NCBI GenBank assembly: GCA_964247685.1
Contig: CAXTVZ010000001.1
Location: 56,800-120,799, forward strand
Direction of reading: 5' to 3'
DNA from: an uncultured Acetobacteraceae bacterium
GTDB lineage: Bacteria > Pseudomonadota > Alphaproteobacteria > Acetobacterales > Acetobacteraceae
Length of the DNA stretch: 64,000 nt
Position numbers and translations under genes: made by a program. The notes beneath the pieces were generated by a model. The model had not been told where the DNA came from and ran no database searches. It worked only from the letters and a program-made list of their open reading frames with translations. Below are positions 31,574 to 63,294 of this stretch, one piece after another (positions within the stretch are counted from its first letter, which is position 1; each line of letters starts with the position of its first letter).

Positions 31574-31641
31574 GCAGAGTCACCGAAACCTGTCCCGTAA
31601 CCTCTGACTCGGCTGTAAACGGGCGAGAGGGAAAACACAAC

Positions 31642-32256
31642 GTGCAAGCGCCGCAGGAACCTCGCCAGCACCTAGTCGGCTACGCGCGGGTCTCAATGAG
31701 CGATCAGAACACCCAGCGCCAGATAGACGAGCTGAAGGCTTTCGGGGTGGCCGAGAGCGACATTTTCCAGGACACGAAATCCGGCAAGACGATGAACCGG
31801 CCGGGCTGGAAGAACCTCTGGCGGGACGTGCGCGAGGGCGACCTGCTCGTGGTCCATGCGCTCGACCGCCTCGGCCGCGACATGCTGGAGGTGATGGCGA
31901 TCCTGGACGAGCTGGATCGCCGCAAGGTCCAGGTGAAGATACTCACCTTCGGGCTCGACACCCGCACGCCGATGGGCCGGTTCGTCCTGAGCATCTTGCT
32001 TTCTGTGGCCGAACTGGAGCGCAACATGATCGTGGAACGCACCCGGCACGGCCTGGCGAAGGCGCGGGAGCGCGGGCGGATCGGCGGGCGGCCCGAACGG
32101 CTAAGCGAGGCGAAGGTGCTGGAGGCCATCCGGCGCGAGAAGGCCGGCGAGTTTCTAAGCGACATCGCCAAGGAGTTCGGGGTGGGCCGGAACACTCTCT
32201 ACAAGCGGCGGAAAGACACGATGGACGCGCAGCGAGCCAAGGAGAAAGCAAAGTGA
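31642..32256 (+). CDS. serine recombinase, invertase/resolvase type with C-terminal HTH
   Basis: LVGYARVSMSDQNTQRQ, VVHALDRLGRD, ERNMIVERTRHGLAKARERGRIGGRP, SDIAKEFGVGRNTLYKRR; GTG start after GAGAGGGA. Confidence 0.9.
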   Translation: MQAPQEPRQHLVGYARVSMSDQNTQRQIDELKAFGVAESDIFQDTKSGKTMNRPGWKNLWRDVREGDLLVVHALDRLGRDMLEVMAILDELDRRKVQVKILTFGLDTRTPMGRFVLSILLSVAELERNMIVERTRHGLAKARERGRIGGRPERLSEAKVLEAIRREKAGEFLSDIAKEFGVGRNTLYKRRKDTMDAQRAKEKAK

Positions 32257-44313: not shown

Positions 44314-47300
44314 GTGCAGCAACTTAACTTTTTTGAGGTGCAGGCGCCGCGCGTCAGCGCCGCAACGCCGCCGGCGGAAAACTTTTCCCTACTCGACTCA
44401 GCCGAGCAAGGCCGCGGCCTGGCAAAGACGTGGAAGGAGCGCGCGGCCGACAACATCGCCGCCATCCGGCTTGCGCAACGCATAGAGGCCGAGTTCCGGC
44501 CCGCAACGCTGGCCGAGTGTGCCCAGCTCATCCGCTTCGTCGGCTTCGGCGCGTCGGACTTGGCAAACAGCCTGTTTCCCACAAAGGCCGGCGCTTTCGG
44601 TCAGGGATGGGAACAGCTGGGCCAGGCGTTGCACGCAGTGGCCGGCCGCGAGGTGACGGCGCTCGCGCGCGCAACGCAGTACGCGCACTTCACCCCGGAA
44701 TACATCGTCACGGCCATGTGGGATGCGGTGCGCCGCTTCGGCTTCGATGGCGGCCGCGTGCTCGAACCAGGCTGCGGCACCGGCCTGTTCCTGGCGCTGG
44801 CGCCAAAAGCCATCGCGCAGGCGTCGGTCTTCGTGGGCATCGAGCGTGATCCGATAACCGCTCGCATCGCGCGGTTGCTGCATCCTTTGGCGCACATCGA
44901 GACGGCTGATTTCGGGCAACGTCACCTGCCGCGCTGCGCCGAGCCGTTCGACCTGGTGATTGGCAACCCGCCGTTCTCCGACCGGACGGTAACGGCCGAC
45001 GACGCCGAGGGTGCCGGCAAGCTCGGGCTGTCGCTGCACGAGTTCTTCATCCTGCGCGCCGTGCGCATGCTGCGGCCTGGCGGGCTCGGTGCCTTTGTCA
45101 CCAGCCGCTACCTCATGGACAAGGGGTCGGATCTTGCCCGCGCGGTGCTGGCCGCCGATGCCGAGCTGCTCGGCGCGATCCGGCTGCCGCGCGGCAGCAT
45201 GCGCGCCGCAGCGGGCACCGACGTGGTGGTCGACCTGCTGTTCCTTCGCCGGCGCGATAAGCGGGGCGCGCACCCGCTGAGCAAGCCCTGGGTCGCGCTT
45301 GGCAGCGTTGCCTGCACCGGCCTGGCGACGAGTTGCACCGTCAACAGCTTCTTCGCCGAGACGCCCGAGGCGGTGCTCGGCAACCATGCCTTTGTCAGCA
45401 GCCAGCACGGGCCGGCCTACACGTGCGCGCCGGAGCCTGGCCTGGACCTGCCGGGCGAGCTCGCGGCCGCTGCCGAGCGTCTAGCGTCCGAGCAGGCGTT
45501 CTGGCCAGCGGACGCCGTGCTGGACGCCGACGAGGCCGACCCCGTGCCCGACGTGAACGTGCGCAGCGTGGCCGACGGAGGCACCCTGCGCGAAGGCTCC
45601 TACTTCGTGGACACGGATCGGCTCTGGCAGATCGTGGACGGCCGCGCGGTGGCGGTGGCGGTCAAGGCGGGCCGCGGCACCGAGGGCATCTTCCAGAGCC
45701 ACGCGGCCATCATCCGCGGCCTCATCCCGATCCGCGACGCGGTGCGCGACGTGCTGCGGGCGCAGGTGCGCAACTCGGCGTCATGGGCGGCCGAAGCGGC
45801 GCGCCTTCGGGGCGCCTACGACGCCTTTGTCAAGAAGCACGGGCCGATCAACCACACAGTGCTGTCCACCACCACGGTCGACGACGTGGTGCGGGTGACA
45901 GACCCGGAGACCGGGGAGGTGCTCAGCGAGACGCTGGAGCAACGCGAGCGCACCACCGCGCGGCGGCCGAACCTCGCGCCGTTTCTCGACGACCCTGACG
46001 TCTGGCTGGTGTCCTCGATTGAGAGCTACGACGTCGACACCGGCATCGCCAAGCCGGGCGCGGTGTTTACCGAGCGGGTCATTCGCCAGCCCACCGAGCC
46101 GGTCATCGCCAGCGCCGCCGACGCCCTGGCGGTGGTGCTCAACGAGGTGGGCCGGGTCGACATCCCGCGCATCGGCGGGCTCATCTTCAAGCCGCCGGCG
46201 GAGGTCATACGCGAGCTCGGCGCCGCCATCTTCGAGGACCCGGAGACGGAGCAGTGGGTCACTGCGGACGCCTATCTGTCCGGCGCGGTGCGCGGCAAGC
46301 TGAAGACCGCGCAACGCGCGGCGGCGGAGGCCGGCGCCCGCTACCAGCGCAACGTCGAGGCGTTGGAGGCCGTGCAGCCGACCGACCTCAAGCCGTCGGA
46401 AATTACCGCTAGGCTGGGCGCGCCGTGGGTGCCCGTGCCGGTCGTCGAGCGCTTCATTCTCGAGGTCATGCGGGTGCGCACGACCGTCCACCACACGCCC
46501 GCCGTGGCGTCGTGGACCGTCGAGCAGCCGCCGTTCAAAGGCAACGCAGCCAGCACGTCGGAGTGGGGCACGCAGCGCCGGCACGCCGGCGACCTGCTGG
46601 AGGACGCGCTGAACGCGTCCATCCCACGAATTTACGACGTCGAGCGCGACAGTTCCGGCAAGGAGATCCGCACTTTCAACGCGGCTGCCACCGAGGCGGC
46701 AAAGGAGAAGCTCGAAAAGATCAAGCGGGCCTTTGAGGCTTGGGTCTGGAAAGAGCCGTCGCGCGCCGACAGGCTGGTTCGGATCTACAACGACGACTAC
46801 AACAACTTGGTGCCGCGCCACTTCGACGGCGCGCACCTGCAGTTGCCCGACGCCAGCGGCATCATCGAGATGCGGCCGCACCAGAAGCGCGGCGTCTGGC
46901 GCGTCATCACTGCGGGGTCCACCTACCTTGCGCACGCCGTGGGTGCCGGCAAAACCTTCCTGATGGCCGCGGCGCTGATGGAGCAGAAGCGGCTCGGCCT
47001 TGTCAGCAAGCCCATGATGGTCGTGCCCGGGCACTGCCTGGCGCAAGCCGCGCGCGAGTTCCTGATGCTCTACCCGACGGCGCGCATCCTGGTCGCCGAC
47101 GAGACCAACTTCGTCAAGGAAAAGCGCCAGCGCTTCATCGCGCGCGCGGCCACCGGCAACTGGGACTGCATCATCCTGACGCACTCCGCCTTCAAGTTCA
47201 TCCCCGCGCCCGGCGCGTTCGAACGCAGCATGATCAACGAGCAGCTGGCCAACTACGAGGAGCTCCTGCTGTCGGTCGACGAAAACGACCGCGTGGGCCG

Positions 47301-49374
47301 CAAGCGGTTGGAGCGGCTGAAAGAGGGCTTCGAGGAACGCCTTGACCGGCTGTCCTCGCGCAAGGACGACGTGGTCACCATTGCCGAAATCGGCGTGGAT
47401 CAGATCGTCGTCGACGAGGCGCAGGAGTTCCGCAAGCTCTCGTTCGCAACCAACATGGGCACGCTGCGCGGCATCGATCCGGACGGCTCGCAGCGCGCTT
47501 GGGACCTCTACGTCAAGGTCAAGTTCATCGCCCAGTCGAACCCGACGCGGCCGCTGATCATGGCGTCCGGCACGCCTATCACGAACACCATGGGCGAGCT
47601 GTTCACCCTCATGCGCTTCATGCACGAGGTAGGGCTGATCGACCGGCTGGTGCACCAGTTCGACGCCTGGGCGTCGACCTTCGGCGAGACGCGCACCGAT
47701 CTCGAGCTGCAGCCATCGGGCCTCTACAAGCCGGCCACCAGGTTCAGCCAGTTCGTCAATGTGGCAGAGCTGATCGCGATGTTCCGCGCGGTGGCCGACG
47801 TCGTGCTGAAAGACGACCTGCGCGGCTACATGAAGCTGCCGCGCATCAAAGGCGGCAAGCGGCAAATCCTGACGTTCAAGCCGACGCCCGCCTTCCGCGC
47901 CTACCAGAAGGAACTCGCGCACCGCATCGCCCTGATCGAGCAGCGCAAGGGGATGCCGAAAAAAGGCCAGGACATCATCCTGTCGGTCATCGGCGACGGC
48001 CGGCACGCGGCGCTGGACATGCGCTTCACCGGCCCGGACGCCGAGAACGAGCCCGAAAACAAGCTGAACGGGCTCATCGCGAACGCCTTTAAAATTTGGC
48101 AGGAGACCAGCGGCTACCGCTACACAAACCCGGCAACCGGGGAAGCCTATCCGCTGCCCGGTGCCACGCAGATGATCTTTTCCGACCTCGGCACTCTGAA
48201 CGCCGTGGCAACGCGTGGCTTCTCCGCCTACGCGTGGATCCGCACCGAGCTGATCCGGCTCGGCGTGCCGGCGGAGCAGATCGCCATCATCCACCACTAC
48301 AAGCGCGCGGCCGAGAAGCTGGCGCTTTTTGCCGACCTTAACAGCGGTCGAAAGCGCTTCGTCATCGGTTCGAGCGAAAAGATGGGCACCGGCGTCAACG
48401 CGCAGCAACGTCTGATCGCGATGCACCACCTTGACGTTCCCTGGCTGCCGTCCTGGATCGAACAGCGGGAAGGGCGCATCGACCGGCAGGGCAACCAGAA
48501 CGACGAAATCGGCCTGTTTGCCTATGCGACGACTGGCAGCATGGACGCGCCAATGTGGCAGTTCAACGAGAGAAAGGCGCGTTTCATTGCCGCGGCGCTG
48601 TCGGGCGACCGCTCCATCCGCCGGCTCGACGACGTCGGCGACACCGTCGACCAGTTTGCTTTTGCCAAGGCGCTATCGAGCGGCGACGCGCGCCTGATGC
48701 AGAAGGCCGGGCTCGAAGCTGAGCTTGCCCGCCTGCATCGGCTGAAGGACTCGCACTTCGACGACCAATACAACGTGCGTCAGCGCGTCGACGGCGCGCG
48801 CGGCACGATCGTGCGCTGTCAAAAGCGCATTCCGCTGCTGGAGATGGACCTCGACAATCGCGTGGACACCCGCGCGGACCTGTTCCAGATGACGGTTGAC
48901 GGCAAGGCCTACACCGAGCGCAAGGCGGCCGGCGCCGCCTTGCTGGCGTTCGCGCGCGCCCGCAAAGCCGGCATGCAGGACGGCGAGTGGACTATCGCGC
49001 AGCTGGGCGGGTTCGCCGTGAAGCTGGACAGCGAAGTCCTTGTCGAGCGGTCGCGCGGCAAGGAGGTCGCCCGGTCGTGGTTCGCCCACCTTTGGATCAT
49101 GTTTAGCGCCGAGCCGACGAGGGTATCGGCGGACGTGGCGGCCCTAGAGCCGCTCGGCTTGGTCGCGCGGCTGGAGAACGCCGTGCGTGCTCTCGACTAC
49201 GACCTGACAACGACGCAGACGCGCCTGGCGGACGCCGAGAAGGACCTCCGGGAGTTCGAGGCGATGCTGCAGGACACCTTCGAGTTTCAGGACGAACTCG
49301 ATGCCAAAACCGACGAGCTGTTGACCCTCAACGAGTCCCTGGCGCGCAACACGGAAGCCCCTGTTTTGCTCTAG
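44314..49374 (+). CDS. N6-adenine DNA methyltransferase fused to SNF2-family helicase (DarB-like giant protein)
   Basis: LEPGCGTGLFLA, VIGNPPFSD; AVGAGKTFLM, VVDEAQEFRK, MASGTPITNTMGELF, QREGRIDRQGN; 1686 aa. Confidence 0.9.
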   Translation: MQQLNFFEVQAPRVSAATPPAENFSLLDSAEQGRGLAKTWKERAADNIAAIRLAQRIEAEFRPATLAECAQLIRFVGFGASDLANSLFPTKAGAFGQGWEQLGQALHAVAGREVTALARATQYAHFTPEYIVTAMWDAVRRFGFDGGRVLEPGCGTGLFLALAPKAIAQASVFVGIERDPITARIARLLHPLAHIETADFGQRHLPRCAEPFDLVIGNPPFSDRTVTADDAEGAGKLGLSLHEFFILRAVRMLRPGGLGAFVTSRYLMDKGSDLARAVLAADAELLGAIRLPRGSMRAAAGTDVVVDLLFLRRRDKRGAHPLSKPWVALGSVACTGLATSCTVNSFFAETPEAVLGNHAFVSSQHGPAYTCAPEPGLDLPGELAAAAERLASEQAFWPADAVLDADEADPVPDVNVRSVADGGTLREGSYFVDTDRLWQIVDGRAVAVAVKAGRGTEGIFQSHAAIIRGLIPIRDAVRDVLRAQVRNSASWAAEAARLRGAYDAFVKKHGPINHTVLSTTTVDDVVRVTDPETGEVLSETLEQRERTTARRPNLAPFLDDPDVWLVSSIESYDVDTGIAKPGAVFTERVIRQPTEPVIASAADALAVVLNEVGRVDIPRIGGLIFKPPAEVIRELGAAIFEDPETEQWVTADAYLSGAVRGKLKTAQRAAAEAGARYQRNVEALEAVQPTDLKPSEITARLGAPWVPVPVVERFILEVMRVRTTVHHTPAVASWTVEQPPFKGNAASTSEWGTQRRHAGDLLEDALNASIPRIYDVERDSSGKEIRTFNAAATEAAKEKLEKIKRAFEAWVWKEPSRADRLVRIYNDDYNNLVPRHFDGAHLQLPDASGIIEMRPHQKRGVWRVITAGSTYLAHAVGAGKTFLMAAALMEQKRLGLVSKPMMVVPGHCLAQAAREFLMLYPTARILVADETNFVKEKRQRFIARAATGNWDCIILTHSAFKFIPAPGAFERSMINEQLANYEELLLSVDENDRVGRKRLERLKEGFEERLDRLSSRKDDVVTIAEIGVDQIVVDEAQEFRKLSFATNMGTLRGIDPDGSQRAWDLYVKVKFIAQSNPTRPLIMASGTPITNTMGELFTLMRFMHEVGLIDRLVHQFDAWASTFGETRTDLELQPSGLYKPATRFSQFVNVAELIAMFRAVADVVLKDDLRGYMKLPRIKGGKRQILTFKPTPAFRAYQKELAHRIALIEQRKGMPKKGQDIILSVIGDGRHAALDMRFTGPDAENEPENKLNGLIANAFKIWQETSGYRYTNPATGEAYPLPGATQMIFSDLGTLNAVATRGFSAYAWIRTELIRLGVPAEQIAIIHHYKRAAEKLALFADLNSGRKRFVIGSSEKMGTGVNAQQRLIAMHHLDVPWLPSWIEQREGRIDRQGNQNDEIGLFAYATTGSMDAPMWQFNERKARFIAAALSGDRSIRRLDDVGDTVDQFAFAKALSSGDARLMQKAGLEAELARLHRLKDSHFDDQYNVRQRVDGARGTIVRCQKRIPLLEMDLDNRVDTRADLFQMTVDGKAYTERKAAGAALLAFARARKAGMQDGEWTIAQLGGFAVKLDSEVLVERSRGKEVARSWFAHLWIMFSAEPTRVSADVAALEPLGLVARLENAVRALDYDLTTTQTRLADAEKDLREFEAMLQDTFEFQDELDAKTDELLTLNESLARNTEAPVLL

Positions 49375-49379
49375 TGACA

Positions 49380-49392
49380 CAACAAAATGTTG
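49380..49392. promoter_or_regulatory. CAACA-N3-TGTTG palindrome
   Basis: gacaCAACAaaaTGTTGcg; TTGCGT-N17-CATATT with spacer CTCGCCC-ggt-GGGCGAG. Confidence 0.55.
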
Positions 49393-49461
49393 CGTCTCGC
49401 CCGGTGGGCGAGCATATTATCGACACACCGAGGCAACATCGCCAGGTGCAGCGCGGAGCGA

Positions 49462-49584
49462 ATGATGACGGCAGGATCCCCCGGCGAAAACCCCAATCCC
49501 CCGTATCAGGACGACCCGGTGAGGGTGCTGCTGCGCGTCGCCTTCATCTTCACCGTCTGCAACTACATCTGGCTGCACCTCTGA
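49462..49584 (+). CDS. small hydrophobic-tail peptide
   Basis: 40 aa; GGAG upstream; stop overlaps next start (TGATG). Confidence 0.35.
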   Translation: MMTAGSPGENPNPPYQDDPVRVLLRVAFIFTVCNYIWLHL

Positions 49585-50480
49585 TGGCGGCAGGCCTGTT
49601 GGCACACCGAAGCGGTGCGCAGGCGTCGTTGCTCGGGCCGGTCGCGTCGTCGCGCCGCCCGTCAGCCGAGGGCACCGCCGGCGCGGGCCTGAACCCGGAT
49701 CTTGACCAGTACTTCACCCCGACATGGGTGGCCGAGGCGCTGGTTGAGCAGTTTTTCCCAACGCTGGCGACCGATTTCGTTGTGGACGCCGGGTGCGGGC
49801 ACGGCGCGTTTTTGGGCGCCCTTCCGGCCAGCGTGGACGCGCTCGGGGTTGAGATCGACCCCGAGGCCGCCGCCATCGCTAGGCGCAACACCGGGCGACT
49901 GGTCCTGACGGGCGACTTTTTGGACGTCGAGCTCACGCGCCAGCCCACCATGATCATCGGCAACCCGCCGTTCCGCGAGGCGATCCTCGACGCGATGCTG
50001 GCGCGCGCGCACCTGCTGCTGCCGCGGGGCGGCCAGGTCGGGTGGGTGCTGCCGGCCTACGTCTTTCAGACGCCGTCGCGCGTGCTGGCGATGGCCGAAC
50101 GGTGGAGCATCGAGAGCAAGGCCATGCTGCCGCGCACGCTCTACCGCGGGCTGAAGGAGCCGCTCGCCTTCATGGTGTTCACCAAGGACGGCCGCAGGCT
50201 GCTGCAGGGCTTCGCCCTCTATCGGGAGGCGGCCGAGGTGGCCGCGCTGAGCGAGGCCTACCGGGTGGTGCTGTCTCGCGCGCCGCGCTCGGCGTGGGTG
50301 CGGTGCGTGGCCGATGCGGTGCGCACGATGGGCGGCACGGCGACGCTGCCCCAGATCTACGCCGAGATCGGCGGCCGCCGGCCGTCGCAGACGACCTGGT
50401 GGCGCGAGAAGGTCCGGCAGGTCGCGCAGGCACACCTCGTCCGGCTCGACAGCGGCACTTACGGGTTGGCGGCGAGGTGA
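49584..50480 (+). CDS. N6-adenine DNA methyltransferase (NPPF type) with C-terminal wHTH-like tail
   Basis: DQYFTPTWVA, VVDAGCGHGAF, IIGNPPFRE. Confidence 0.75.
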   Translation: MAAGLLAHRSGAQASLLGPVASSRRPSAEGTAGAGLNPDLDQYFTPTWVAEALVEQFFPTLATDFVVDAGCGHGAFLGALPASVDALGVEIDPEAAAIARRNTGRLVLTGDFLDVELTRQPTMIIGNPPFREAILDAMLARAHLLLPRGGQVGWVLPAYVFQTPSRVLAMAERWSIESKAMLPRTLYRGLKEPLAFMVFTKDGRRLLQGFALYREAAEVAALSEAYRVVLSRAPRSAWVRCVADAVRTMGGTATLPQIYAEIGGRRPSQTTWWREKVRQVAQAHLVRLDSGTYGLAAR

Positions 50481-54752: not shown

Positions 54753-55006
54753 GCCGTCACGAAGCCGAGGCGCTAAACCCTGACCATTTTGTCCGCGTTG
54801 GTTGGGACCCGCCGCTGCAAACCTTCTTCATCCAGGTGCACGACAGCAGGGTGCCTCACGACGAGGAGTCGGTCGTGCACTGGCAGGGCTGCGGCTACGC
54901 CGAGCTGCCGACGATCGAGAGCCTGGCCGAAGCGGGCAGGGGCTATACGACGGTGCCCGAACAGCTGCACCTCACACTGCAAGAGGACAAGCTGCTGAAT
55001 CGATGA
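54749..55006 (+). CDS. hypothetical protein
   Basis: GTGA overlap. Confidence 0.5.
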   Translation: MSRHEAEALNPDHFVRVGWDPPLQTFFIQVHDSRVPHDEESVVHWQGCGYAELPTIESLAEAGRGYTTVPEQLHLTLQEDKLLNR

Positions 55007-55605
55007 GCCACAGCTTGGCCGACCTGCTGACCGGCATAGAGCCGCCCCGGCACGACACCGGGTGCAAGCGCCTGCTGCGCTGGCCGGCCGACACGCGCAC
55101 GACAGCCGTGTTCGACGGTCCGGGCGACTGCTACCGCTATGCTCTGACTCAGACTTGGGATCCGGCGCGGCCGTTGGCGATGTTCGCGCTGATGAACCCG
55201 AGCGGCGCCAGCATAGATTTCGGTGATTCGACGCTGCTGCGCACCGGCTGGTTCGCCCGCCGCTGGGGTTACGGCGGCCAGCTCATCGCCAACGCGTGCG
55301 CCTGGCGGCGCACTGACAACGAGGATCTGCTGGCGGTGCCCGACCCTGCCGGCCCGCAAAACCTGCACTGGGTCTGCCGGCTGGCGGCCCAGGCGCAGCT
55401 TGTCGTCATCGGCCACGGTCAGCTGCCCGCCAAGTTGCAGCACCATGCGGACGGCATGGTCGCGGCGTTGCGCGCCGCCGGGCACGACCTGCACGTGTTC
55501 GGCCTGTCGAAAGCCGGTGTCCCGGTGCATCCCCTGGCGCGCGGTAAGCACAGGCTTTCCGACGAGACGAAGCCGATCCGGTGGGCGCTCGACGCGCCCC
55601 TATGA
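55003..55605 (+). CDS. DUF1643-like protein
   Basis: YRYALTQTWD, MFALMNPSGAS, DSTLLRTGWFARRWGYGG, GVPVHPLA. Confidence 0.65.
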   Translation: MSHSLADLLTGIEPPRHDTGCKRLLRWPADTRTTAVFDGPGDCYRYALTQTWDPARPLAMFALMNPSGASIDFGDSTLLRTGWFARRWGYGGQLIANACAWRRTDNEDLLAVPDPAGPQNLHWVCRLAAQAQLVVIGHGQLPAKLQHHADGMVAALRAAGHDLHVFGLSKAGVPVHPLARGKHRLSDETKPIRWALDAPL

Positions 55606-55950: not shown

Positions 55951-56376
55951 TCAGCAGGCTAGCGGAAGGTCGTGCGACACGTAGGTCTGTGCGGCCTCGG
56001 CCACGCGGAGCCAGGGAACCTGCAGGCGCTCCGGCAGGCGGGAGAAGGGCACCACGACGGCGTAGTTCTGTGAGGCCGCGTAGAGTGACGCGGCGATGTC
56101 CGTGCGGGACATCGTCAGCTTCGGTTCGCTTGCCATGTCCGTAGCCAACGGCCGCAAGCTGGTCCTGCCGGGATTGGACCTGAGCTCGGTCAGGCGCTCA
56201 ATTGGGACACCGAGCGAGCGCAGCACGGTCTCCGCAATGAGTTCGCCCAGCCCGCCAGGCTCCGGGGTTTCGGCCAGCAGCTCGGTCAGTTCGTCCTTGC
56301 TCATGCAGGTCGCCTTGACGACCCGGCATATTGCCCGGGCGGCTTCACGGTACATCCGGTGCTCGGTAGGAGCCAT
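55951..56376 (-). CDS. hypothetical protein
   Basis: Start uncertain (ATG 56376 or 56460). Confidence 0.45.
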   Translation of the reverse strand: MAPTEHRMYREAARAICRVVKATCMSKDELTELLAETPEPGGLGELIAETVLRSLGVPIERLTELRSNPGRTSLRPLATDMASEPKLTMSRTDIAASLYAASQNYAVVVPFSRLPERLQVPWLRVAEAAQTYVSHDLPLAC

Positions 56377-56679
56377 CACCCAGTTCCCCTGCGCGGCCGA
56401 CTCGGCCGTGTGGATTAACGGCCACGTGCAACAGGATTTGCAGAAATCGCGAGTGCACACGCATTAACTTCGGCGCGATCACAGCCTGTTGTATAGCCGA
56501 ACCTGTCGTCGCGCTCGGCAACCGCAGCCGCTAGCGCTGAGCTTTCCTGCATAACCCGGCGCTAAAACCGCCCGCGTCAGTGAAAAACGATCAAAAATAG
56601 AACAGCTTTCACTGGATTGTAGCAAAAGTTAGAGCTTTCGTCGGCCCGTTACTGGTATCGTTGCACGGTTAGAGGGCGT

Positions 56680-56952
56680 GTGATGTCGAGAGATACTTCG
56701 CAGATCGGCGAGGCGGAGGCGGTTGTAGACCTAATGCTGGCGGGTGATTTGCTGGCGCGCTGCAACTGCGGGTGGCGACTGGTGCTCGACGGCCGCGCGG
56801 TTGAGGAGACGGTCGTGGAGCGGCTGAAAACAGGCTCTGGCCTTGGCGGCCGGCTGCTGCCGATGAACGACCAGCTACCCGGCATGTCCGCGCAGCTGGC
56901 GCAGACCTGGCGTTGGGCTCGCGCGCGCGTTCGCCGGAGGGTGGCCGCATGA
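56680..56952 (+). CDS. hypothetical protein
   Basis: AGAGGG upstream of GTGATG. Confidence 0.4.
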   Translation: MMSRDTSQIGEAEAVVDLMLAGDLLARCNCGWRLVLDGRAVEETVVERLKTGSGLGGRLLPMNDQLPGMSAQLAQTWRWARARVRRRVAA

Positions 56953-57164
56953 TGCTCGGTGCGCGGCGGCGCTGGTGGCGCATCAGTCTCGTTCCGCTGG
57001 TCGCAGCCGCACCGCGGCCGAACCGCACCGCCGGCGGGCCGGTGCCCGCGCAGGCGGCCTTCGGGTTCGTGTCCACGCAGGAGGCTGGCCGTGTCGTCGA
57101 CTTCAGCCAGGACGCCGGATTGATCGACCGGATGTGCCCCTTCGAGCGCGACAACACGGCCTGA
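56949..57164 (+). CDS. hypothetical protein
   Basis: ATGA overlap; weak. Confidence 0.3.
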   Translation: MMLGARRRWWRISLVPLVAAAPRPNRTAGGPVPAQAAFGFVSTQEAGRVVDFSQDAGLIDRMCPFERDNTA

Positions 57165-57243
57165 GTTGGCATAAGATTCATTCTGCGACCGAGGAGCGCG
57201 TCGGTCTACCTCGGCACTCGCCTCCCCCGAGAGCACCGCCGCA

Positions 57244-57257
57244 CAACAAAATTGCGG
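57244..57257. promoter_or_regulatory. palindrome family, degenerate
   Basis: caCAACAaaaTTGCGG, right arm lacks TG. Confidence 0.3.
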
Positions 57258-57416
57258 CCGGATACCGAAACAAAGCGTCGGCGATCACTTTTTGCGGTAC
57301 TTACGCTCAACTTTCTGTTGACGCCACGGCCCGTCAAAATGTAGGAAATTTCCACGCTGGCAGAGCGCGCCCCGGACGCCCGGACGCCCACAGTTGCCAC
57401 CCTTGCCGGAACGATC

Positions 57417-58085
57417 ATGGCGACGAAATCCACGGCCAAGTCCCCGGCGCCGCGCGCTCAGAAGCTTTTCGACACCGAGGCCAAGCCGCTCGTTGTCACC
57501 TACCTGCCGCTGAAGTCGCTGATCCCTTACGCGCGCAACTCGCGGACGCACAGCCGCTCAAACATCCAGAAGATCAAGGCCAGCCTTGTCGAGTATGGGT
57601 GGGCGACGTCGATGGGCATCGCCGACGGCGGCATGCTCTACGGCCACGGCCGCTTGTCTGCCGCACTCGAGCTTGCCGACGAAGGCGTGCCGATTCCGTT
57701 CAATCCGGACCCGCTGCTCGGCCCGACGGTCGACCTGTCGCACCTCAACGAGATGCAGCGCCGCGCCTACGTCATCCAGGACAACCGCTCGGCGCTCGAC
57801 GCCGGCTGGGACGAGGACCTGCTGCGCTTCGAAATGGGCGAGCTGAAGAACGCCGGCTTCGACCTCAGCTTAACCGGCTTCGACTTGCCCGAGCTCACGA
57901 ACATCCTCACCGGTCAGTCGGCCGAGCCAGCGAAGGACGAGGAGGAAGAAGCCTCCCCCGCCGACGCCGGCAACTACAAGGAGCAGTATGGCGTGATCGT
58001 CATGTGCACCGGCGAGGATCACCAGAAGGTGGTCTTCGAGAAGCTGAAGGACATGGGCATGGACGTTCGGATCGTCGCCACCTGA
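57417..58085 (+). CDS. ParB-like nuclease (ParB/Srx) domain protein
   Basis: LIPYARNSRTHS and MLYGHGRLSAA. Confidence 0.8.
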   Translation: MATKSTAKSPAPRAQKLFDTEAKPLVVTYLPLKSLIPYARNSRTHSRSNIQKIKASLVEYGWATSMGIADGGMLYGHGRLSAALELADEGVPIPFNPDPLLGPTVDLSHLNEMQRRAYVIQDNRSALDAGWDEDLLRFEMGELKNAGFDLSLTGFDLPELTNILTGQSAEPAKDEEEEASPADAGNYKEQYGVIVMCTGEDHQKVVFEKLKDMGMDVRIVAT

Positions 58086-59239
58086 TGCGTATCGAGGTCC
58101 GCAACCGCTGCTCCGACTTCGACAGCTACCGCGCAGCGCGCGTCAAGTCGCTGTTCAACGCTGAGACCGGCTGCAACTTTACGCTCGACGCAGACATGCC
58201 GGTCGAGGACCGACCGTGGACGATCGGCGTGGTGGTCGGGCCGTCCGGGTCGGGCAAGACCAGCATCGGCCGGCGGATCTTTGGCGGCGAGGCGTTCTAC
58301 GAACCCGGCTGGCGCGACGACGCGCCGGTTGTCGACTGCATCGCCCCCGACGGCGACTTCAACGAGGTGACGGCCGCGCTGGCGGCGGTGGGCCTGGGCG
58401 ACGTGCCGTCCTGGTTGCGCCCCTACGCGGTGCTGTCGAACGGCGAGAAGTTCCGCGCCGACCTGGCGCGCATCGTCGCGGAGAAGCCCGAGCACGTGGT
58501 CATCGACGAGTTCACCTCAGTCGTGGACCGGCAGATTGCCAAGATCGGCGCGCTCGCGTTTCAGAAGTCCTGGCGCCGCACCAAGGGTCAGGCCGTGCTG
58601 CTGTCCTGTCACTATGACGTCTTGGAATGGGTGCAGCCGGATTGGGTGTTCGACACCCAGCGGCGAGAGTTCGATTGGGTGCGTCTTCAACGGCCCAGAA
58701 TCGAGCTGGAAATTAGGCAGACAGACGGAAGTTACTGGCCGCTCTTTGCTCCACATCACTATCTGAAGCTGCCGCGCATGGTCGCCGCAACGTATTACGT
58801 TGGAGTGATCAACGGCGAGCCAGTGGCGCACCTTGGCGTGGCGCCCAAGCTGGAAAGCAACGGCATGCGGGCGAGCCGGCTGGTCATCATGCCGGAGTGG
58901 CAGGGCGCCGGCGTCGGGCTTCGCTTCCTCAACGCCATTTCCGAGATCCACTTGCGCGGCGAAGGGAAGTACGGCGACCGCGTTAAGACGATGTTCTTTG
59001 GCACGTCGCATCCAGGCCTGTGCTCGGCTCTCCGCCGCGACCCTCGCTGGGAGCAGACGGCCTGCGAGCTCTACGGTCAGAACAAGCTGAGATCCGTGGC
59101 GTCGGTCCAAAAGAGTGCACGCCAGGCGGGGCGCGGCCTCATACAGGCCGGTTTTGGCGGACATTTCCGCGCGGTTCAGGGGTTCGCCTACCGTCGGTCG
59201 ACGATGCGCTACCTAGAACAGCAAAAGGCCGCCGCGTGA
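58085..59239 (+). CDS. ABC-type ATPase fused to GNAT acetyltransferase-like domain
   Basis: VVGPSGSGKTS, LSNGEKFRADLAR, VVIDEFTSVVD; C-terminal RLVIMPEWQGAGVGLRFL (GNAT motif A); TGATG overlap. Confidence 0.7.
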   Translation: MRIEVRNRCSDFDSYRAARVKSLFNAETGCNFTLDADMPVEDRPWTIGVVVGPSGSGKTSIGRRIFGGEAFYEPGWRDDAPVVDCIAPDGDFNEVTAALAAVGLGDVPSWLRPYAVLSNGEKFRADLARIVAEKPEHVVIDEFTSVVDRQIAKIGALAFQKSWRRTKGQAVLLSCHYDVLEWVQPDWVFDTQRREFDWVRLQRPRIELEIRQTDGSYWPLFAPHHYLKLPRMVAATYYVGVINGEPVAHLGVAPKLESNGMRASRLVIMPEWQGAGVGLRFLNAISEIHLRGEGKYGDRVKTMFFGTSHPGLCSALRRDPRWEQTACELYGQNKLRSVASVQKSARQAGRGLIQAGFGGHFRAVQGFAYRRSTMRYLEQQKAAA

Positions 59240-59934
59240 CGCCGCTGCGCATCATCTTCTGCGGTCAGCGCTCGTTCGGCGCAGCCGCGCTCGAGGCGCT
59301 GCTCAAGGCCGGCCACCAGGTGCTCGCCGCCTACGTGCCGGAACCGGGTGCCGACCAGCGCGGGCTCGACCGGGCGCTGATGGCCGCCGACCGGCTGCGG
59401 GTGCCCATCAGGCACGGCCTGCGGGCCGCCACGATGCCCGCCGACGCCGACCTCGTCGTCTGCGCGCACAGCCACGACTTCGTCTCCGCGCCGACGCTGC
59501 GGAAGACCCGCTTGGGCGGCATCGGCTACCACCCTTCCCTGTTGCCGCGGCATCGCGGCCGCGACGCCGTGGAGTGGACGGTGCGCATGGGTGACCGGGT
59601 GACCGGCGGTTCCGTCTACTGGCTGTCCGACACCGTCGACGCTGGCCCGCTGGCGGCGCAGCGCCACGTCATGGTGCGCCCGGCCGACACCGCCTCGGAG
59701 CTCTGGCGGCGCGAGCTATTCCCCCTCGGCGTCCGGCTGCTCGCCAGCGCGTGCCGCGACATCGCCGCCGGCAGGCTGGTCACCGTGCCACAAGACGAAG
59801 CGTGCGCGACGTGGGAGCCGTCGATCGGACGCGCGCCACTGTTCCGGCCGGACCTGCCGATGCTGGCCGCACCTGGCAGCGCCGGCATGGCCCACATCGT
59901 GTCGTGGGACGCGGCCTCAGACCAGGCCGCGTAG
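59236..59934 (+). CDS. formyltransferase (Fmt/PurN-like)
   Basis: IIFCGQRSFG and GYHPSLLPRHRGRDAVEW; GTGA overlap. Confidence 0.8.
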   Translation: MTPLRIIFCGQRSFGAAALEALLKAGHQVLAAYVPEPGADQRGLDRALMAADRLRVPIRHGLRAATMPADADLVVCAHSHDFVSAPTLRKTRLGGIGYHPSLLPRHRGRDAVEWTVRMGDRVTGGSVYWLSDTVDAGPLAAQRHVMVRPADTASELWRRELFPLGVRLLASACRDIAAGRLVTVPQDEACATWEPSIGRAPLFRPDLPMLAAPGSAGMAHIVSWDAASDQAA

Positions 59935-60330
59935 CGACTCAAGAACGAGATCTGGCGCGGCAAAGAAGCCCAGCTGTCCAAGGGCCGGGACGAACGGCAG
60001 CGCGCGCGCGTGGGCGAGCACGAAGCCGTAAGGCCCGAAAAACCAGGGGCTGTCCGAGGCGGTCACGCAGTCGGTGATTTCCGCGTAGCCGACGATACCC
60101 GCAAACGCGGGCTCGTTGGTCGGCATGCGCGCTGCGTATCGAGCGAGGTCGGGCCGGCGCATGTCGGAACGCGACGCGCCCGAATGAATCAGGATGGGCC
60201 CGCGGTAGGACGTCGGCCACTTCCGGTTCTCGACGTCCTTGCCGATGTCGGGCGTCACGATCATGAACGCCCACGGCTGCTTAATGCTCAGGCACGGCAG
60301 GGTGACACCAGGCGGACAGGATCGAAACAT
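59917..60330 (-). CDS. ASCH domain protein
   Basis: LSIKQPWAFMIV...KDVENRKW...GPILIHSG; start ATG 60330 or GTG 60345; 3' end overlaps formyltransferase by 18 nt. Confidence 0.7.
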   Translation of the reverse strand: MFRSCPPGVTLPCLSIKQPWAFMIVTPDIGKDVENRKWPTSYRGPILIHSGASRSDMRRPDLARYAARMPTNEPAFAGIVGYAEITDCVTASDSPWFFGPYGFVLAHARALPFVPALGQLGFFAAPDLVLESLRGLV

Positions 60331-60336
60331 GCTCAC

Positions 60337-60359
60337 GGGGGGCACTACACATGCCCCCC
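60337..60359 (-). terminator. perfect 8-bp GC hairpin after CDS 60376..61266
   Basis: GGGGGGCA-N7-TGCCCCCC; followed on minus strand by GUGAGCAUGUUUCG. Confidence 0.4.
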
Positions 60360-60375
60360 GCCGGCGGTCAATCCG

Positions 60376-61266
60376 TTACGCTGTGGCCTGTTCGCCCAGC
60401 GCGTAGCACGGCTCCTTTCCGATTTTCGTTGTCACCAGCGGCCGACCTTGCGAGGCGGCCACTTTCTTGAGGTAGAAGCTGCTCGGCTTGGTGTTCCAGC
60501 CCGCCGCGCGCTGTAGCTGCGAGATGGTCGCGCCGCCGGGTGCGTCGAGCAGGGCCACGATCTTGTCGCGCACGCCGCCCTTGCGCGGTGCCTGACCCTG
60601 GCCCTCGGCCTTGCCGCGTTGCGCCTTCACATTCCGGCTCTCGACGACCTGCACAATGTCGAGCGTCTCGCCCTTGCGGATGGTGACCGGCAGCTTGAGC
60701 TGCTTGGACAGCTTGCTCGCCCACATCACCGACCCCTGCGCCGGGAAGGCTATGCAGAGGAACACCTCGCCCTGCGGCACCGCGGCGGTCTCGACGTCGG
60801 CAGTATGCACGACCTCGCCGTTGCTGGCGGTGGCCACGATCGTCAGGCCGTTGGCATTGGCGACGTCGTTGGCCGCAGCAGCGGCCAAGGTGTGCTCGGT
60901 CACAGCCCACGTGTTGCTGTCGAGGTCGCTCAGCGTGACGGTGCCGCCTGCGTCCACGGTGGCGTCGAGCACCGGCGCGGTGCCCTCGCTGGCCGCGCTG
61001 CCGACAACGGTGGTGGCGGCATCGTCGGCGAACAGCTCGTCGGCCGTCAGCGCGCGCGCTGGGGCGCCGGCCTCGACGGACGCAACCGCTGCGTCGTCGG
61101 TGGCCTCCGCGTCGTCGTCCCCGCCGTTGGCGATGATGTAGACGTAGCCTGCGGCCTCAAGCTTGATGTCGATGTCGGCCTGGGTGAGCTTGCCGCCGCT
61201 CTTTTCGATTTCCTTGCGAGCCGCGCGGGCGCAGTTGGAACGGTTCGTAAAGGGCTTGCTGATCAT
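60376..61266 (-). CDS. acidic protein with DUF3489-like C-terminal wHTH
   Basis: AAGGA upstream of ATG 61266; C-terminal GATISQLQRAAGWNTKPSSFYLKK. Confidence 0.5.
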   Translation of the reverse strand: MISKPFTNRSNCARAARKEIEKSGGKLTQADIDIKLEAAGYVYIIANGGDDDAEATDDAAVASVEAGAPARALTADELFADDAATTVVGSAASEGTAPVLDATVDAGGTVTLSDLDSNTWAVTEHTLAAAAANDVANANGLTIVATASNGEVVHTADVETAAVPQGEVFLCIAFPAQGSVMWASKLSKQLKLPVTIRKGETLDIVQVVESRNVKAQRGKAEGQGQAPRKGGVRDKIVALLDAPGGATISQLQRAAGWNTKPSSFYLKKVAASQGRPLVTTKIGKEPCYALGEQATA

Positions 61267-61326
61267 CGTCGGTGTCCTTGCTTGCGCTGGGTCAGTCCCT
61301 CGCGCTGAAACAACGATTGCTCGCTC

Positions 61327-61355
61327 TTTTTTACCCGAGCAAGCAGATTTCATGC
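61327..61355 (+). promoter_or_regulatory. candidate promoter of packaging operon
   Basis: CAACgaTTGCTC-N17-CAAGCA in AT-rich gap; TTGCTCG/CGAGCAA inverted repeat. Confidence 0.3.
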
Positions 61356-61448
61356 GATCACAAAAAATATTCTGCGGCTGACCCGTCATCCACTTGTGCG
61401 ACGGGTGCCGCTTTTTCGGGAGCGATGGCATTAGCCGCGCTGTGACAC

Positions 61449-61889
61449 ATGGACGAAACACCGGAAACGCTGCCCGCCAGAAAGCCGCGACGCGGACGAC
61501 CGAAGTTCGAGCCCACCCCGGCGCAACGAGTGACAGCGCTCGCGTTGAAAGCCGCTGGCTCGCCGCACGCCGTGATCGCGTCGATCATGGAAATTCCGCT
61601 GCGGACCTTCGACCGCCATTTCAAGCGGGAGATCGCGCAAGGCCACGAGGAGGTCACCGCGCGCATTGCGCACGGCCTGATTGGACGGGCGCTAGGCGGA
61701 GACAACGACGCGGCCAAGTTCTTCCTGCGAACCCGTGCCGGCTGGACGACGCGCACGGAGGTGACAGGCGCCGAGGGCGGTCCGATTGACATCCGCAACA
61801 TCTCCACTGATCAGCTCACTGCAGCGCTTATCGCCTTCGCAGAGAGCGACGGTGCTGGCGAGGATGGCGCAGGAGCTGAGGAGGCGTAA
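61449..61889 (+). CDS. terminase small subunit-like protein
   Basis: RGRPKFEPTPAQR, HTH segment, AAKFFLRTRAGW; directly upstream of large terminase. Confidence 0.6.
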   Translation: MDETPETLPARKPRRGRPKFEPTPAQRVTALALKAAGSPHAVIASIMEIPLRTFDRHFKREIAQGHEEVTARIAHGLIGRALGGDNDAAKFFLRTRAGWTTRTEVTGAEGGPIDIRNISTDQLTAALIAFAESDGAGEDGAGAEEA

Positions 61890-63294
61890 GACCTGGACGC
61901 CCTTCGCCGGCCCGCAGACGGCGGCGCTCAACAGCGCCGCGGACATCCTGTTCTACGGCGGGGCCGCCGGCGGCGGTAAGACCGACCTCATCTGCGGCGC
62001 GGCCATTACGCGGCATCACAAGTCGATCATCTTCCGGCGCGAGTACGGCGAGCTTGCCGGCATCATGGACCGCGCCGCCGAGCTGCTCGAGGGCCGTGGC
62101 TCCTACAACGGGCAGCGCCGGCTCTGGAAGATCGACGACCAGCAGCGCCGCATGGAATTTGGCGCGGTCCAGTTCGAACAGGACGTGCGCAAGTTTCAGG
62201 GCCGCCCGCACGACCTCAAAGCCTTCGACGAAATCACCAATTTTACCGAGTCGCAGTTCCGCTTCCTGATGGGCTGGAATCGAAGTGCCCGCCCCGGGCA
62301 GCGCTCGCGCGTGATCTGCACCGGCAACCCACCGACCACGGCCGAGGGCGACTGGGTCATCGAGTTCTGGGGGCCCTGGCTTAACAAGACACACCCCAAT
62401 CCGGCGGTTCAGGGCGAGCTGCGCTGGTTCGCGACGGTCGCTGGCAAAGACGTCGAGGTTGCGGATTCGACGCCCTTCAAGGTCAAGGGTGAGGAAGACC
62501 TGATCACGCCGAAGTCGCGGACGTTCATCCGCGCTCGCGTGCAGGACAACCCGGTCTACATGGCGTCGGGTTACCTGGCGACCTTGCAGGCGCTGCCCGA
62601 GCCGCTGCGCTCGCAGATGCTGTTTGGCGACTTCTCCGCCGGCCAGGACGACGCGCCGCGCCAGGTCATTCCGACGGCGTGGGTGCTCGCGGCACAGGCG
62701 CGGTGGACGGAGAAGCCGCCTGCCCCGATTTCTGCGCTGGGCGTCGACGTGGCCCGCGGCGGTGCCGACAAGACCGTCATCACGCCCCGCCACGGCGTCT
62801 GGTTCGGCAAGCAGCTGTCGCATCCCGGCAGCACCACCCCGGACGGTCGCGTGGTCGCGCAGATGTGCCTGGAGGCCATCCCAACCGGCACCGCACCGTC
62901 GGTGCAAATCGACATCACCGGCGTCGGGTCGAGCCCCTACGACATGGCGCTGATGCTTGGCATGCGCGCGGCGGCCATGAACGGCTCCGCCCGCAGCGAT
63001 GCCACCGACAAGAGCGGGCGGTTGGGCTTTTTAAACGCCCGCGCCGAATGGTGGTGGCTGCTGCGCGAGGCGCTCGACCCTGACGTGGGCGAGGACCTCG
63101 CCATTCCGCCGGACCGCGAACTGCTGGCCGACCTGACCGCGCCGCGCTGGCAGCCCTGCACTAAGGGCATCCAGATCGAGAGCAAGGACGACATCAAGTC
63201 GCGCATCGGCAGGTCGCCCGATAAGGGCGAGAGCCTTGTCTACGCTTTCGGGCGCGCGACCCAGGCCTACGACGATACGATGAGCTGGGTCTGA
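61864..63294 (+). CDS. terL: terminase large subunit
   Basis: Walker A LFYGGAAGGGKTD, KAFDEITNF Walker B-like, C-terminal nuclease-sized domain; start ATG 61864 inside ORF 61786..63294. Confidence 0.9.
   Translation: MAQELRRRKTWTPFAGPQTAALNSAADILFYGGAAGGGKTDLICGAAITRHHKSIIFRREYGELAGIMDRAAELLEGRGSYNGQRRLWKIDDQQRRMEFGAVQFEQDVRKFQGRPHDLKAFDEITNFTESQFRFLMGWNRSARPGQRSRVICTGNPPTTAEGDWVIEFWGPWLNKTHPNPAVQGELRWFATVAGKDVEVADSTPFKVKGEEDLITPKSRTFIRARVQDNPVYMASGYLATLQALPEPLRSQMLFGDFSAGQDDAPRQVIPTAWVLAAQARWTEKPPAPISALGVDVARGGADKTVITPRHGVWFGKQLSHPGSTTPDGRVVAQMCLEAIPTGTAPSVQIDITGVGSSPYDMALMLGMRAAAMNGSARSDATDKSGRLGFLNARAEWWWLLREALDPDVGEDLAIPPDRELLADLTAPRWQPCTKGIQIESKDDIKSRIGRSPDKGESLVYAFGRATQAYDDTMSWV

Follow-up and report, generated by a model that had tools for sequence, protein, structure and literature searches.

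Acylation of phage DNA by an enzyme of the GNAT type is experimentally known through Mom only and is otherwise predicted. Mom of phage Mu is a GNAT that acylates adenine in DNA, at N6, with Gly-tRNA(Gly) as the donor (PMC13219725). The Aravind group predicted in 2013 and 2021 that proteins in which an ABC ATPase is fused to a GNAT domain (the ABC::GNAT family) acylate a base in DNA (PMC7824862, citing Iyer et al. 2013), and ParB proteins are experimentally required as activators of the T-dioxygenases of phage DNA (PMC13229309). Here we describe a gene cassette with a ParB-type protein and an ABC::GNAT protein, carried by a phage-like element in a stretch of 64,000 nucleotides from an uncultured Acetobacteraceae bacterium (assembly GCA_964247685.1, contig CAXTVZ010000001.1, positions 56,800 to 120,799), which as a whole is called the window below. 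The cassette consists of open reading frame (ORF) 1, a ParB-type protein with a C-terminal adaptor domain, ORF2, the ABC-ATPase::GNAT fusion (AG, for the window protein and its homologues), and ORF3, a formyltransferase whose homologues are called Fmt in the counts of loci. A convergent ASCH gene (ORF4) overlaps its end. On balance the locus is probably a late-expressed phage DNA-modification cassette that acylates phage DNA against restriction. Our confidence that DNA is what the cassette modifies is moderate, and that in formyl-coenzyme A (formyl-CoA) chemistry is low to moderate. The four genes and their domains are the following (aa, amino acids).

57417-58085, + strand: ORF1, 222 aa; ParB/Srx N-terminal domain, acidic linker and C-terminal adaptor domain
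57975..58082, + strand: adaptor domain of ORF1, about 36 aa, YKEQYGVIVMCTGEDHQKVVFEKLKDMGMDVRIVAT; matches phrog_28816
58085-59239, + strand: ORF2 (AG), 384 aa; ABC-ATPase::GNAT fusion
58085..58684, + strand: N-terminal half of ORF2, ABC-type ATPase domain
58685..59239, + strand: C-terminal half of ORF2, GNAT acyltransferase domain
59236-59934, + strand: ORF3, 232 aa; single-domain formyltransferase fold, 10-formyltetrahydrofolate dehydrogenase (FDH) N-domain/HypX type
59917-60345, - strand: ORF4, 142 aa (137 aa if started from Met6); ASCH domain, convergent

An initial annotation made from the letters of the window had given the positions, overlaps and motifs of these genes, and the ORF calls and the raw sequence agree with it. 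ORF1 and ORF2 meet in TGATG at 58083-58087 (stop TGA 58083-85, start ATG 58085-87) and ORF2 and ORF3 in GTGA at 59236-59239; with both junctions seen, the three forward genes are translationally coupled, as had been proposed. The stop of ORF3 (TAG, 59932-34) and that of ORF4 (59917-19, tca on the + strand) produce an 18-nt convergent 3'-3' overlap. Independent gene calls in the protein collection give identical products for ORF1 to ORF3 (222, 384 and 232 aa), and the GC content at third codon positions (GC3) is 0.82-0.89 in all four ORFs, which in a background of 64-69% (window GC 66%) indicates that they are genuine coding regions. The motif RLVIMPEWQGAGVGLRFL corresponds to residues 265-282 of ORF2 and HPSLLPRHRG to residues 99-108 of ORF3. 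A scan of 56000-61900 for promoters and terminators detected no promoter-like site, and terminator-like sites were fewer than in shuffled sequences; at such high GC the scan is uninformative. The four domain assignments also hold, as profile and structure searches find ParB-N, ABC::GNAT, formyltransferase and ASCH in the respective proteins.

Over its full length ORF2 matches PHROG 11143 ('unknown function') at 3.7e-144. Its N-terminal half matches Pfam ABC_tran (3e-06, 28.3 bits against a cut-off of 25) and has Walker A GPSGSGKT at residues 52-59, the signature LSNGE at 117-121, Walker B VVIDEF at 138-143 and the H-loop at H176, and these four elements show no variation among 41 close and 41 distant relatives. 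The sequence matches of this half in the PDB include EcfA, SufC and EttA, and the top Foldseek matches of the full-length model (pLDDT 80.6) are ABC nucleotide-binding domains. The ABC domain dominated that search, and the GNAT half was therefore modelled separately. With the AlphaFold model of residues 200-384 (pLDDT 84.6), all 50 of the top 50 PDB matches in Foldseek were GNAT acetyltransferases with probability 1.0, and the GNAT-like segment recognised in the initial annotation was thus confirmed by structure. In profile searches this half stays below the Pfam threshold in the window protein itself, while more distant relatives exceed the Pfam GNAT cut-offs. The acyl-CoA pyrophosphate loop is Q273-G-A-G-V-G278; across the wide family Q273 and G274 do not vary, and conservation of G276 and G278 is at least 90%. 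The isoelectric point (pI) is 10.3 for the GNAT half versus 5.2 for the ABC half. Among the homologues of ORF2, P0178 (715 aa) has an intein (Hint and LAGLIDADG homing endonuclease) before the ORF2-matching region, and P0266 (807 aa) has an AP2 domain between an N-terminal P-loop and that region. Mobile insertions like these two are typical of essential phage DNA-metabolism genes.

ORF2 aligns with Tenacibaculum phage pT24, the example given in PMC7824862, with 34% identity over 79% of the query (tblastn, E 6e-46), and this similarity, together with its two domains, assigns it to the predicted ABC::GNAT DNA-acylation family. The suggestion that the system had not been described is therefore to be withdrawn, as the family had already been predicted to acylate a DNA base in 2013 and 2021. 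The accompanying idea of nucleic-acid N-acylation before packaging is the best-supported function of the locus, and it coincides with the published in-silico prediction (PMC7824862). Literature searches found no experimental work on the ABC::GNAT family or on phage acyl- or formyl-DNA, and no mention of a formyltransferase together with the family, the 2013 prediction being known to us through the citing paper (PMC7824862). Apparently new are the universal adaptor, the FDH/HypX-like ORF3, the clade with PanD and a CoA-transferase and the equivalence to the mom slot, some of which may overlap the 2013 paper.

ORF1 itself has no Pfam match, and its relatives exceed the Pfam ParB_N cut-off. It matches the ParB-like PHROG 620/15396 (7e-35), the N-terminal region, of ParB type, in phage DNA methyltransferases (phrog_498, 3e-36) and the PADLOC type II methyltransferase model (MTase_II, positions 13-155, 4.5e-29). 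A profile from 16 ORF1 homologues matched Spo0J (3.5e-11), Noc (1e-09) and ParB (1e-09) in the PDB, with E-values ranging from 3.5e-11 to 1e-07, and these matches were confined to the ParB N-domain (profile positions about 12-101). The helix-turn-helix centromere-binding domain and the C-terminal dimerisation domain of partition ParB proteins were not found in ORF1 in this PDB profile comparison, and the downstream partner is ABC::GNAT, not ParA. The GxxR motif is conserved, with G76 invariant and R79 present in at least 90%, as is N41.

The initial annotation overlooked the adaptor domain of the ParB protein and the dispensability of ParB-N in Mu-like phages, where the cassette is found without it. 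The adaptor consensus, Y-x-x-Q-[YF]-G-V-I-V-x-C-x-x-E-x-x-Q...G-x-x-x-K-V-V-[TV]-stop, covers about 36 residues, and phrog_28816, which the domain matches, is a stand-alone family of 54 aa. The adaptor ends directly before AG in 113 of 116 loci, mostly with a 4-nt stop/start overlap. In 43 of 105 loci a ParB-N protein ends in this domain, in the others the adaptor is a free ORF of 50-70 aa (e.g. phiE255 gp28), and in five proteins (P0199, P0209, P0213, P0221 and P0242) ParB, adaptor and AG are a single polypeptide. The adaptor thus appears to be the universal partner of AG, and ParB-N an optional head fused to it. In Porphyromonas gingivalis phages H35-H38, the stand-alone adaptor ORF upstream of AG is labelled 'acr candidate' (anti-CRISPR) in several records; the role that we propose for the adaptor would speak against this designation.

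ORF3 had been called Fmt-like and taken to formylate an amine. The PF00551 fold behind that proposal was recovered (1.6e-22, 80.5 bits against a cut-off of 26.1), but ORF3 is nearer to FDH and lacks the C-terminal domain of Fmt, and amine formylation is not the sole and perhaps not the best reading. The best sequence match in the PDB is the N-domain of FDH (ALDH1L1; 9e-28), followed by Met-tRNA Fmt (1e-17), ArnA (3e-11), PurN (2e-10) and HoxX/HypX (5e-4), and the active-site stretch YHPSLLPRHRG is nearly identical to that of the ALDH1L1 N-domain. The catalytic His99 and Asp135 are kept, and Gly97 replaces the Asn of the N-x-H motif. Across 32 phage homologues of ORF3 the motif G-[YF]-H-P-S-L-L-P and the catalytic Asp are conserved and the Asn occurs in none (0/32), as in FDH. 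The match stops near residue 199 and the protein ends about 30 residues past the catalytic domain, so that the tRNA-binding C-terminal domain of Fmt is missing. The nearest NCBIfam model, TIGR00460 (fmt), gives 67 bits, which is below its membership cut-off of 201.5. ORF3 is accordingly classified as an FDH N-domain/HypX-type formyltransferase and not as Fmt proper. It differs from ALDH1L1 and HypX in being a stand-alone protein of 232 aa without a carrier, ALDH or enoyl-CoA-hydratase-like domain.

The family of ORF2 is large. ORF2 matches at least 7,770 protein clusters at 90% identity, with the 120th-best match still 67% identical, and in an exhaustive search of representatives at 50% identity 558 clusters match it below 1e-30. 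The carriers are phages and prophages of Actinobacteria, Proteobacteria, Bacteroidota, Firmicutes, Spirochaetes and Planctomycetes, and human-associated ones include gut phages, Porphyromonas gingivalis phages, S. pyogenes prophages and phages of Burkholderia and Pseudomonas. Between phages of Actinobacteria, Proteobacteria and Bacteroidota, AG is 50-68% identical. A census of the clade of the window protein covered 121 loci (50-84% identity) from IMG/VR and GenBank phages and genomes, scored with purpose-built hidden Markov models (HMMs); a scan of genome contigs was saturated by the Walker-A pattern and yielded only 11 loci. Fmt directly follows AG in 82 of the 90 loci having room for it, and the eight without it mostly lie at prophage ends or have the terminase next. 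In the reciprocal sampling, AG was found directly upstream with a 4-nt overlap in all four ORF3 homologues (55-57% identical). The initial annotation had suggested that all four genes belong together. Conservation of adaptor, AG and Fmt was confirmed, whereas ASCH was found with the cassette in only a handful of about 170 loci. The conserved unit is therefore the three genes for ParB/adaptor, AG and formyltransferase, with adaptor and AG as the invariant core. In pT24 and other jumbo phages, AG is accompanied by neither ParB nor Fmt.

In S. pyogenes prophage 315.4 (L051 3369-7191), Lactococcus P335 and Oenococcus phages, AG is annotated in two pieces ('ABC transporter' and a hypothetical protein) after a ParB-N gene; the split may reflect a true frameshift or come from the annotation. 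In Firmicute prophages an ASCH gene lies two genes downstream of the split AG, before the terminase. Apparent AG-Fmt fusion proteins (P0125, P0141 and others) were not used, as they consist of truncated halves and seem to have arisen by deletion or in assembly.

The position of the cassette differs between phage groups. In BcepMu-like phages the small overlapping ORF, AG and Fmt come after the tail-fibre assembly gene (phiE255 gp28-gp29-gp30; Komp_PAO1_1), and by analogy the cassette of Mu-like phages can be said to occupy the com-mom slot of Mu. In the non-Mu relatives it mostly lies just upstream of the terminase (Axumite genes 1-3, 315.4, LE4, Pmp13, planctomycete prophages and the window), and terminase families dominate a Pfam census of 150 downstream-neighbour clusters. 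In the window, ORF4 is followed by these genes.

60376..61461, - strand: ORF5, 361 aa, weak DUF3489; context gene
61449-61889, + strand: small terminase subunit (phrog_309, 8e-08)
61786-63294, + strand: large terminase subunit (phrog_979, 1.2e-39)

The pairing of ORF5 with the adjoining ASCH gene is kept solely in the closest relative, L038.

The enzymes encoded after AG vary by clade, being the formyltransferase here, PanD and a CoA-transferase-like protein in the sister clade of Rhodococcus phage Jace, and none in some others. The order in Jace (L053 3411-6176) is ParB, AG, aspartate 1-decarboxylase (PanD, PF02261, 2e-33) and a CoA-transferase-III-like gene (2.2e-08). Of 24 sister-clade loci (L139-L162), 16 have PanD and the CoA-transferase-like gene after AG, six of these (L140-145) being near-identical copies of one arrangement, and four more (L146-148 and L153) have the CoA-transferase-like gene alone. 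In L140-L145 (IMG/VR; e.g. L140 3992-7258) two full-length AG paralogues (about 1e-140 to the family HMM) flank the pair of PanD and CoA-transferase-like genes. The product of PanD is beta-alanine, which a CoA-transferase could convert to beta-alanyl-CoA. As the FDH/HypX-type ORF3 and its replacement by PanD and CoA-transferase both point to the making of an acyl-CoA, the gene content suggests that the genes after AG synthesise the acyl-CoA donor for the GNAT domain.

ORF4 has no Pfam match of its own at E<=0.1. It matches PHROG 3193 (1.3e-36) and, in the PDB, the ASCH domain of human ASC-1 (6e-4), and its homologues carry PF04266 or bear ASCH names. Its motif G35-K36-x-x-E39-x-R41 is intact, and in ASCH proteins that deacetylate N4-acetylcytidine (ac4C) in tRNA this motif holds the catalytic K/E dyad (bioRxiv 10.64898/2026.02.27.708502). 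The role of an eraser, which the initial annotation gave to ASCH, is compatible with this, but ASCH is only a sporadic neighbour of the cassette and is not among the recurrent neighbours in the Pfam census mentioned above; a four-gene writer/eraser pathway overstates its part, as it is not co-conserved. The subfamily of ORF4 recurs in the Fmt clade (L038 and L187, convergent; L036, + strand) and in the sister clade (L139, L154, L156 and L157, convergent; L172, + strand; also Jace), usually convergent and right after the accessory gene, and a different ASCH is present in S. pyogenes prophage 315.4. ASCH is thus an accessory that recurs but is facultative and lies outside the core, and ORF4 is a candidate deacylase or reader. 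In Mu-like phages, gp31 of phiE255 and CDS0032 of Komp_PAO1_1, both convergent and located after Fmt, show no similarity to ASCH and were rejected as ASCH genes. The public gene call for the window ASCH protein (P0270, 115 aa) starts at Met28 and so loses SIKQPWA (residues 20-26), a conserved motif; translation probably begins at the GTG at 60345 or, five codons further down, at the ATG of Met6.

If the cassette acylates DNA, it could work as follows. The adaptor, through its beta-alpha-beta unit, would dock on AG, and ParB-N, where present, would load AG onto phage DNA, as ParB does with T-dioxygenases and ParB-fused methyltransferases. ATP-driven dimerisation of the ABC domains would engage DNA and may power scanning or base flipping, and the basic GNAT domain would then move the acyl group from acyl-CoA to an exocyclic amine of a base. 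The best guess for the acceptor atom would be N4 of cytosine, because acyl groups on adenine N6 were reported to be unstable in the Mom study (PMC13219725) and ASCH proteins hydrolyse N4-acylcytosines. ORF3 would produce the donor by moving the formyl group from 10-formyltetrahydrofolate (10-formyl-THF) onto the thiol of CoA, and the formyl-CoA would let the clade of the window N-formylate its DNA, while clades without an accessory gene would draw on an abundant donor, e.g. acetyl-CoA. The mark would shield packaged DNA from restriction, and the convergent ASCH protein, in some lineages only, would read or hydrolyse the N-acyl base.

Several lines of evidence argue for DNA as the target. The ParB domain of ORF1 is of the type fused to phage DNA methyltransferases, the GNAT half has a pI of 10.3, and the cassette is in the mom slot or beside packaging genes, a usual place for late DNA modifiers. 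Besides the cassette, the element encodes a DarB-like antirestriction methylase-helicase and two more methyltransferases. The identity of 50-68% between AG proteins from unrelated host phyla points to a universal substrate such as DNA, and the canonical Q-x-x-G-x-G CoA-binding loop kept by the GNAT domain points to acyl-CoA as the donor. A further-reaching version, which we offer tentatively as a possibility, is a modular DNA-acylation platform in which an invariant adaptor and ABC::GNAT writer would be combined with swappable donor-synthesis cassettes (formyl-CoA; beta-alanyl-CoA) to put different N-acyl marks (N-formyl, N-beta-alanyl or N-acetyl) on the DNA of different phage lineages. N-formylated DNA bases and the use of formyl-CoA by a GNAT would then be new to biology, and the co-occurring ASCH proteins would be the first erasers or readers of N-acyl groups on DNA.

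Some points weigh against DNA acylation by the cassette or against the donor chemistry proposed for it. We infer the target, the base, the atom and the acyl group alike. N-formyl amides on nucleobases are chemically labile, and the thiol acceptor proposed for ORF3 is carried over from its closest characterised relatives, the N-domain of FDH and HypX, in which formyl from 10-formyl-THF is handed to the thiol of pantetheine or CoA. Fmt is missing beside AG in eight of the 90 loci of the window's own clade and throughout other clades (planctomycete, Streptococcus and Leptospira phages), and formyl therefore cannot be the universal group. The match of the Jace protein gp88 to CoA-transferase III is limited to the N-terminal ~90 residues. 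The ABC domain of ORF2 is closest in Foldseek to nucleotide-binding domains of transporters and ABC-F proteins, not to DNA-repair ABC ATPases. Homology of AG to Mom, with its catalytic R111/S124 context, was rejected, as hhalign of the AG alignment against Mu Mom gave a probability of 0.2%.

Among the alternatives, the one that survives best, although we find it rather unlikely, is that the GNAT domain attaches to DNA, in a Mom-like manner and from aminoacyl-tRNA or aminoacyl-CoA, an acyl or aminoacyl group that bears an amine, and that ORF3 N-formylates that amine, like Fmt on Met-tRNA or like DpdN, as proposed, on dPreQ1 in phage DNA. Every characterised PF00551 transferase formylates amines, including Fmt, ArnA and PurN among the ORF3 matches, but in ORF3 the Asn that amine-formylating enzymes have is missing, and FDH, to which it comes closest, uses a thiol as the acceptor. 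Loci with AG and without Fmt would fit an optional tailoring step, and an aspartyl group already in place could equally be what PanD of the Jace clade decarboxylates, whereas the CoA-transferase-like partner in that clade is hard to fit in pure tailoring. Mom provides the precedent of a GNAT using Gly-tRNA(Gly) on DNA (PMC13219725); AG, however, shows no similarity to Mom, and the canonical CoA pyrophosphate loop of its GNAT domain favours acyl-CoA over a tRNA donor.

It is quite improbable that the system is directed to RNA, with AG as a TmcA-like, ATP-dependent writer of N4-acylcytidine on host or phage tRNA or rRNA, ASCH as the eraser and ORF3 acting on aminoacyl-tRNA or supplying the donor, for translation takeover or for evading tRNA-targeting defences. 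The combination of ATPase and GNAT follows the logic of TmcA/NAT10, but Pfam finds no TmcA-type helicase, GNAT_acetyltr_2 or tRNA-binding domain in the window protein. Similarly, fmt is the nearest NCBIfam model for ORF3, which nevertheless lacks the tRNA-binding C-domain of Fmt. ORF2 has weak ABC-F/EttA sequence matches, yet it is partnered by a DNA-binding head of ParB type, such as occurs fused to DNA methyltransferases, and the terminase-adjacent or mom-slot positions suit DNA. ASCH proteins with the GKxxExR motif do deacetylate ac4C in tRNA (bioRxiv 10.64898/2026.02.27.708502), but ASCH is present in few loci only.

We assign the same low probability to a protein substrate, in which case AG would acetylate or formylate a protein of the host or of the phage (for example RNA polymerase, a restriction enzyme, a protein of packaging or of the virion, or ParB itself) and the ABC ATPase would be regulatory or clamp the substrate. 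Proteins or small molecules are the substrates of most characterised GNATs, the phage Rac acetyltransferase among them (PMC7824862), and of most of the top structural neighbours of the GNAT half (RimI, GCN5 and PA4794), and the small adaptor protein could be the substrate itself. This would, however, leave the ParB head, the ParB-AG fusions, the mom-equivalent position and the basic GNAT half unexplained, and the identity of AG across host phyla argues against a host-specific protein substrate. Finally, it is highly improbable that ParB and the ABC ATPase act mechanically on DNA (pac-site recognition, condensation, or prophage or plasmid segregation) with the GNAT and formyltransferase as incidental metabolic morons, for although the site is recurrently immediately upstream of the large terminase, sometimes without an annotated small terminase (Axumite, planctomycete prophages), and a ParB and ATPase pair is classical partition logic, partition ParB pairs with the ParA ATPase (Walker-type, not ABC), the GNAT catalytic-site residues do not vary over a set of more than 500 divergent clusters, Fmt keeps its catalytic His and Asp, Mu-like phages have the cassette far from the terminase and without ParB-N, and the window carries its own small terminase.

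Several DNA-modification or anti-restriction functions are stacked on the window element. A DarB-like antirestriction protein of 1686 aa (44314-49374, + strand; phrog_10089, 1545 bits) combines an N6-methylase with a SNF2/ResIII helicase and is directly followed by a second methyltransferase-like gene (49374-50480, + strand), and a third phage DNA methyltransferase is encoded at 14238-15557 (+ strand; phrog_67, 3e-61). This DarB-like gene is also present upstream of the cassette in L038, a related contig. About 2 kb upstream of the window cassette there is a gene for a DUF1643 protein (54802-55605, + strand; PF07799, 9.5e-29), and L038 has DUF1643 and DUF4326 genes in the corresponding region. 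Elsewhere in the window, a second terminase-large-like ORF (27079-28719, + strand; phrog_2666, 1e-19) and a DNA invertase (31540-32256, + strand; phrog_125, 5e-64) are located near a dip of the GC content to 0.58-0.59 at 30-34 kb, and this low-GC stretch may be a junction of two mobile elements or an invertible segment.

If DNA acylation by this cassette is true, it would add a new chemical class, N-acyl bases (possibly N-formyl and N-beta-alanyl), to phage hypermodifications. Such acyl marks would affect restriction evasion, the host range of phages used in therapy, nanopore and SMRT signals and the enzymatic handling of phage DNA, and the cassette could yield new DNA-labelling enzymes. The donor-supply model predicts mass shifts of +28 Da in the clade of the window and of +71 Da in the Jace clade. 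As several of the carriers are cultured phages, among them Gordonia phages Axumite and Ligma, Burkholderia phage phiE255, Pseudomonas phage Komp_PAO1_1 and Rhodococcus phage Jace, the question is directly testable.

Compared with the known systems, the cassette resembles each in part. With Mom, AG shares the GNAT fold, and post-replicative action on double-stranded DNA for anti-restriction is predicted for AG as well. The slot at the end of the late region, after the tail-fibre genes and with a small upstream overlapping ORF, is an analogy of position that holds in phiE255 and Komp_PAO1_1, the window element not being Mu-like, and homology of the small upstream ORF (gp28) to Com was rejected, as no alignment to Com was obtained. 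Mom itself has no ATPase, ParB partner or formyltransferase, and its donor is a charged tRNA (PMC13219725), whereas AG keeps the acyl-CoA loop. A known anti-phage defence system was also rejected, PADLOC giving just the ParB-N match to the ParB-fused methyltransferase model and weak P-loop matches. The analogy to TmcA drawn in the initial annotation is loose. TmcA/NAT10 likewise have ATPase and GNAT on one chain, and the ASCH ac4C amidohydrolases YqfB, TthASCH and EOLA1 are akin to the window ASCH, but TmcA/NAT10 have a RecD-like helicase where AG has an ABC ATPase, and the partner of AG is ParB, which is DNA-directed; by Pfam, ORF2 shows ABC_tran and generic GNAT only, with no helicase, TmcA-type GNAT or tRNA_bind domain. 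In the ParB-dependent T-dioxygenases (5mYOX) and ParB-fused phage methyltransferases, ParB-N is likewise next to or fused to a base modifier, often near the terminase (PMC13229309); here the partner is ABC::GNAT, linked through an adaptor of about 36 aa that is able to exist without ParB-N. The cassette may thus be likened to Mom in its role, to TmcA in coupling NTP hydrolysis to a GNAT and to the ParB-dependent modifiers in its targeting.

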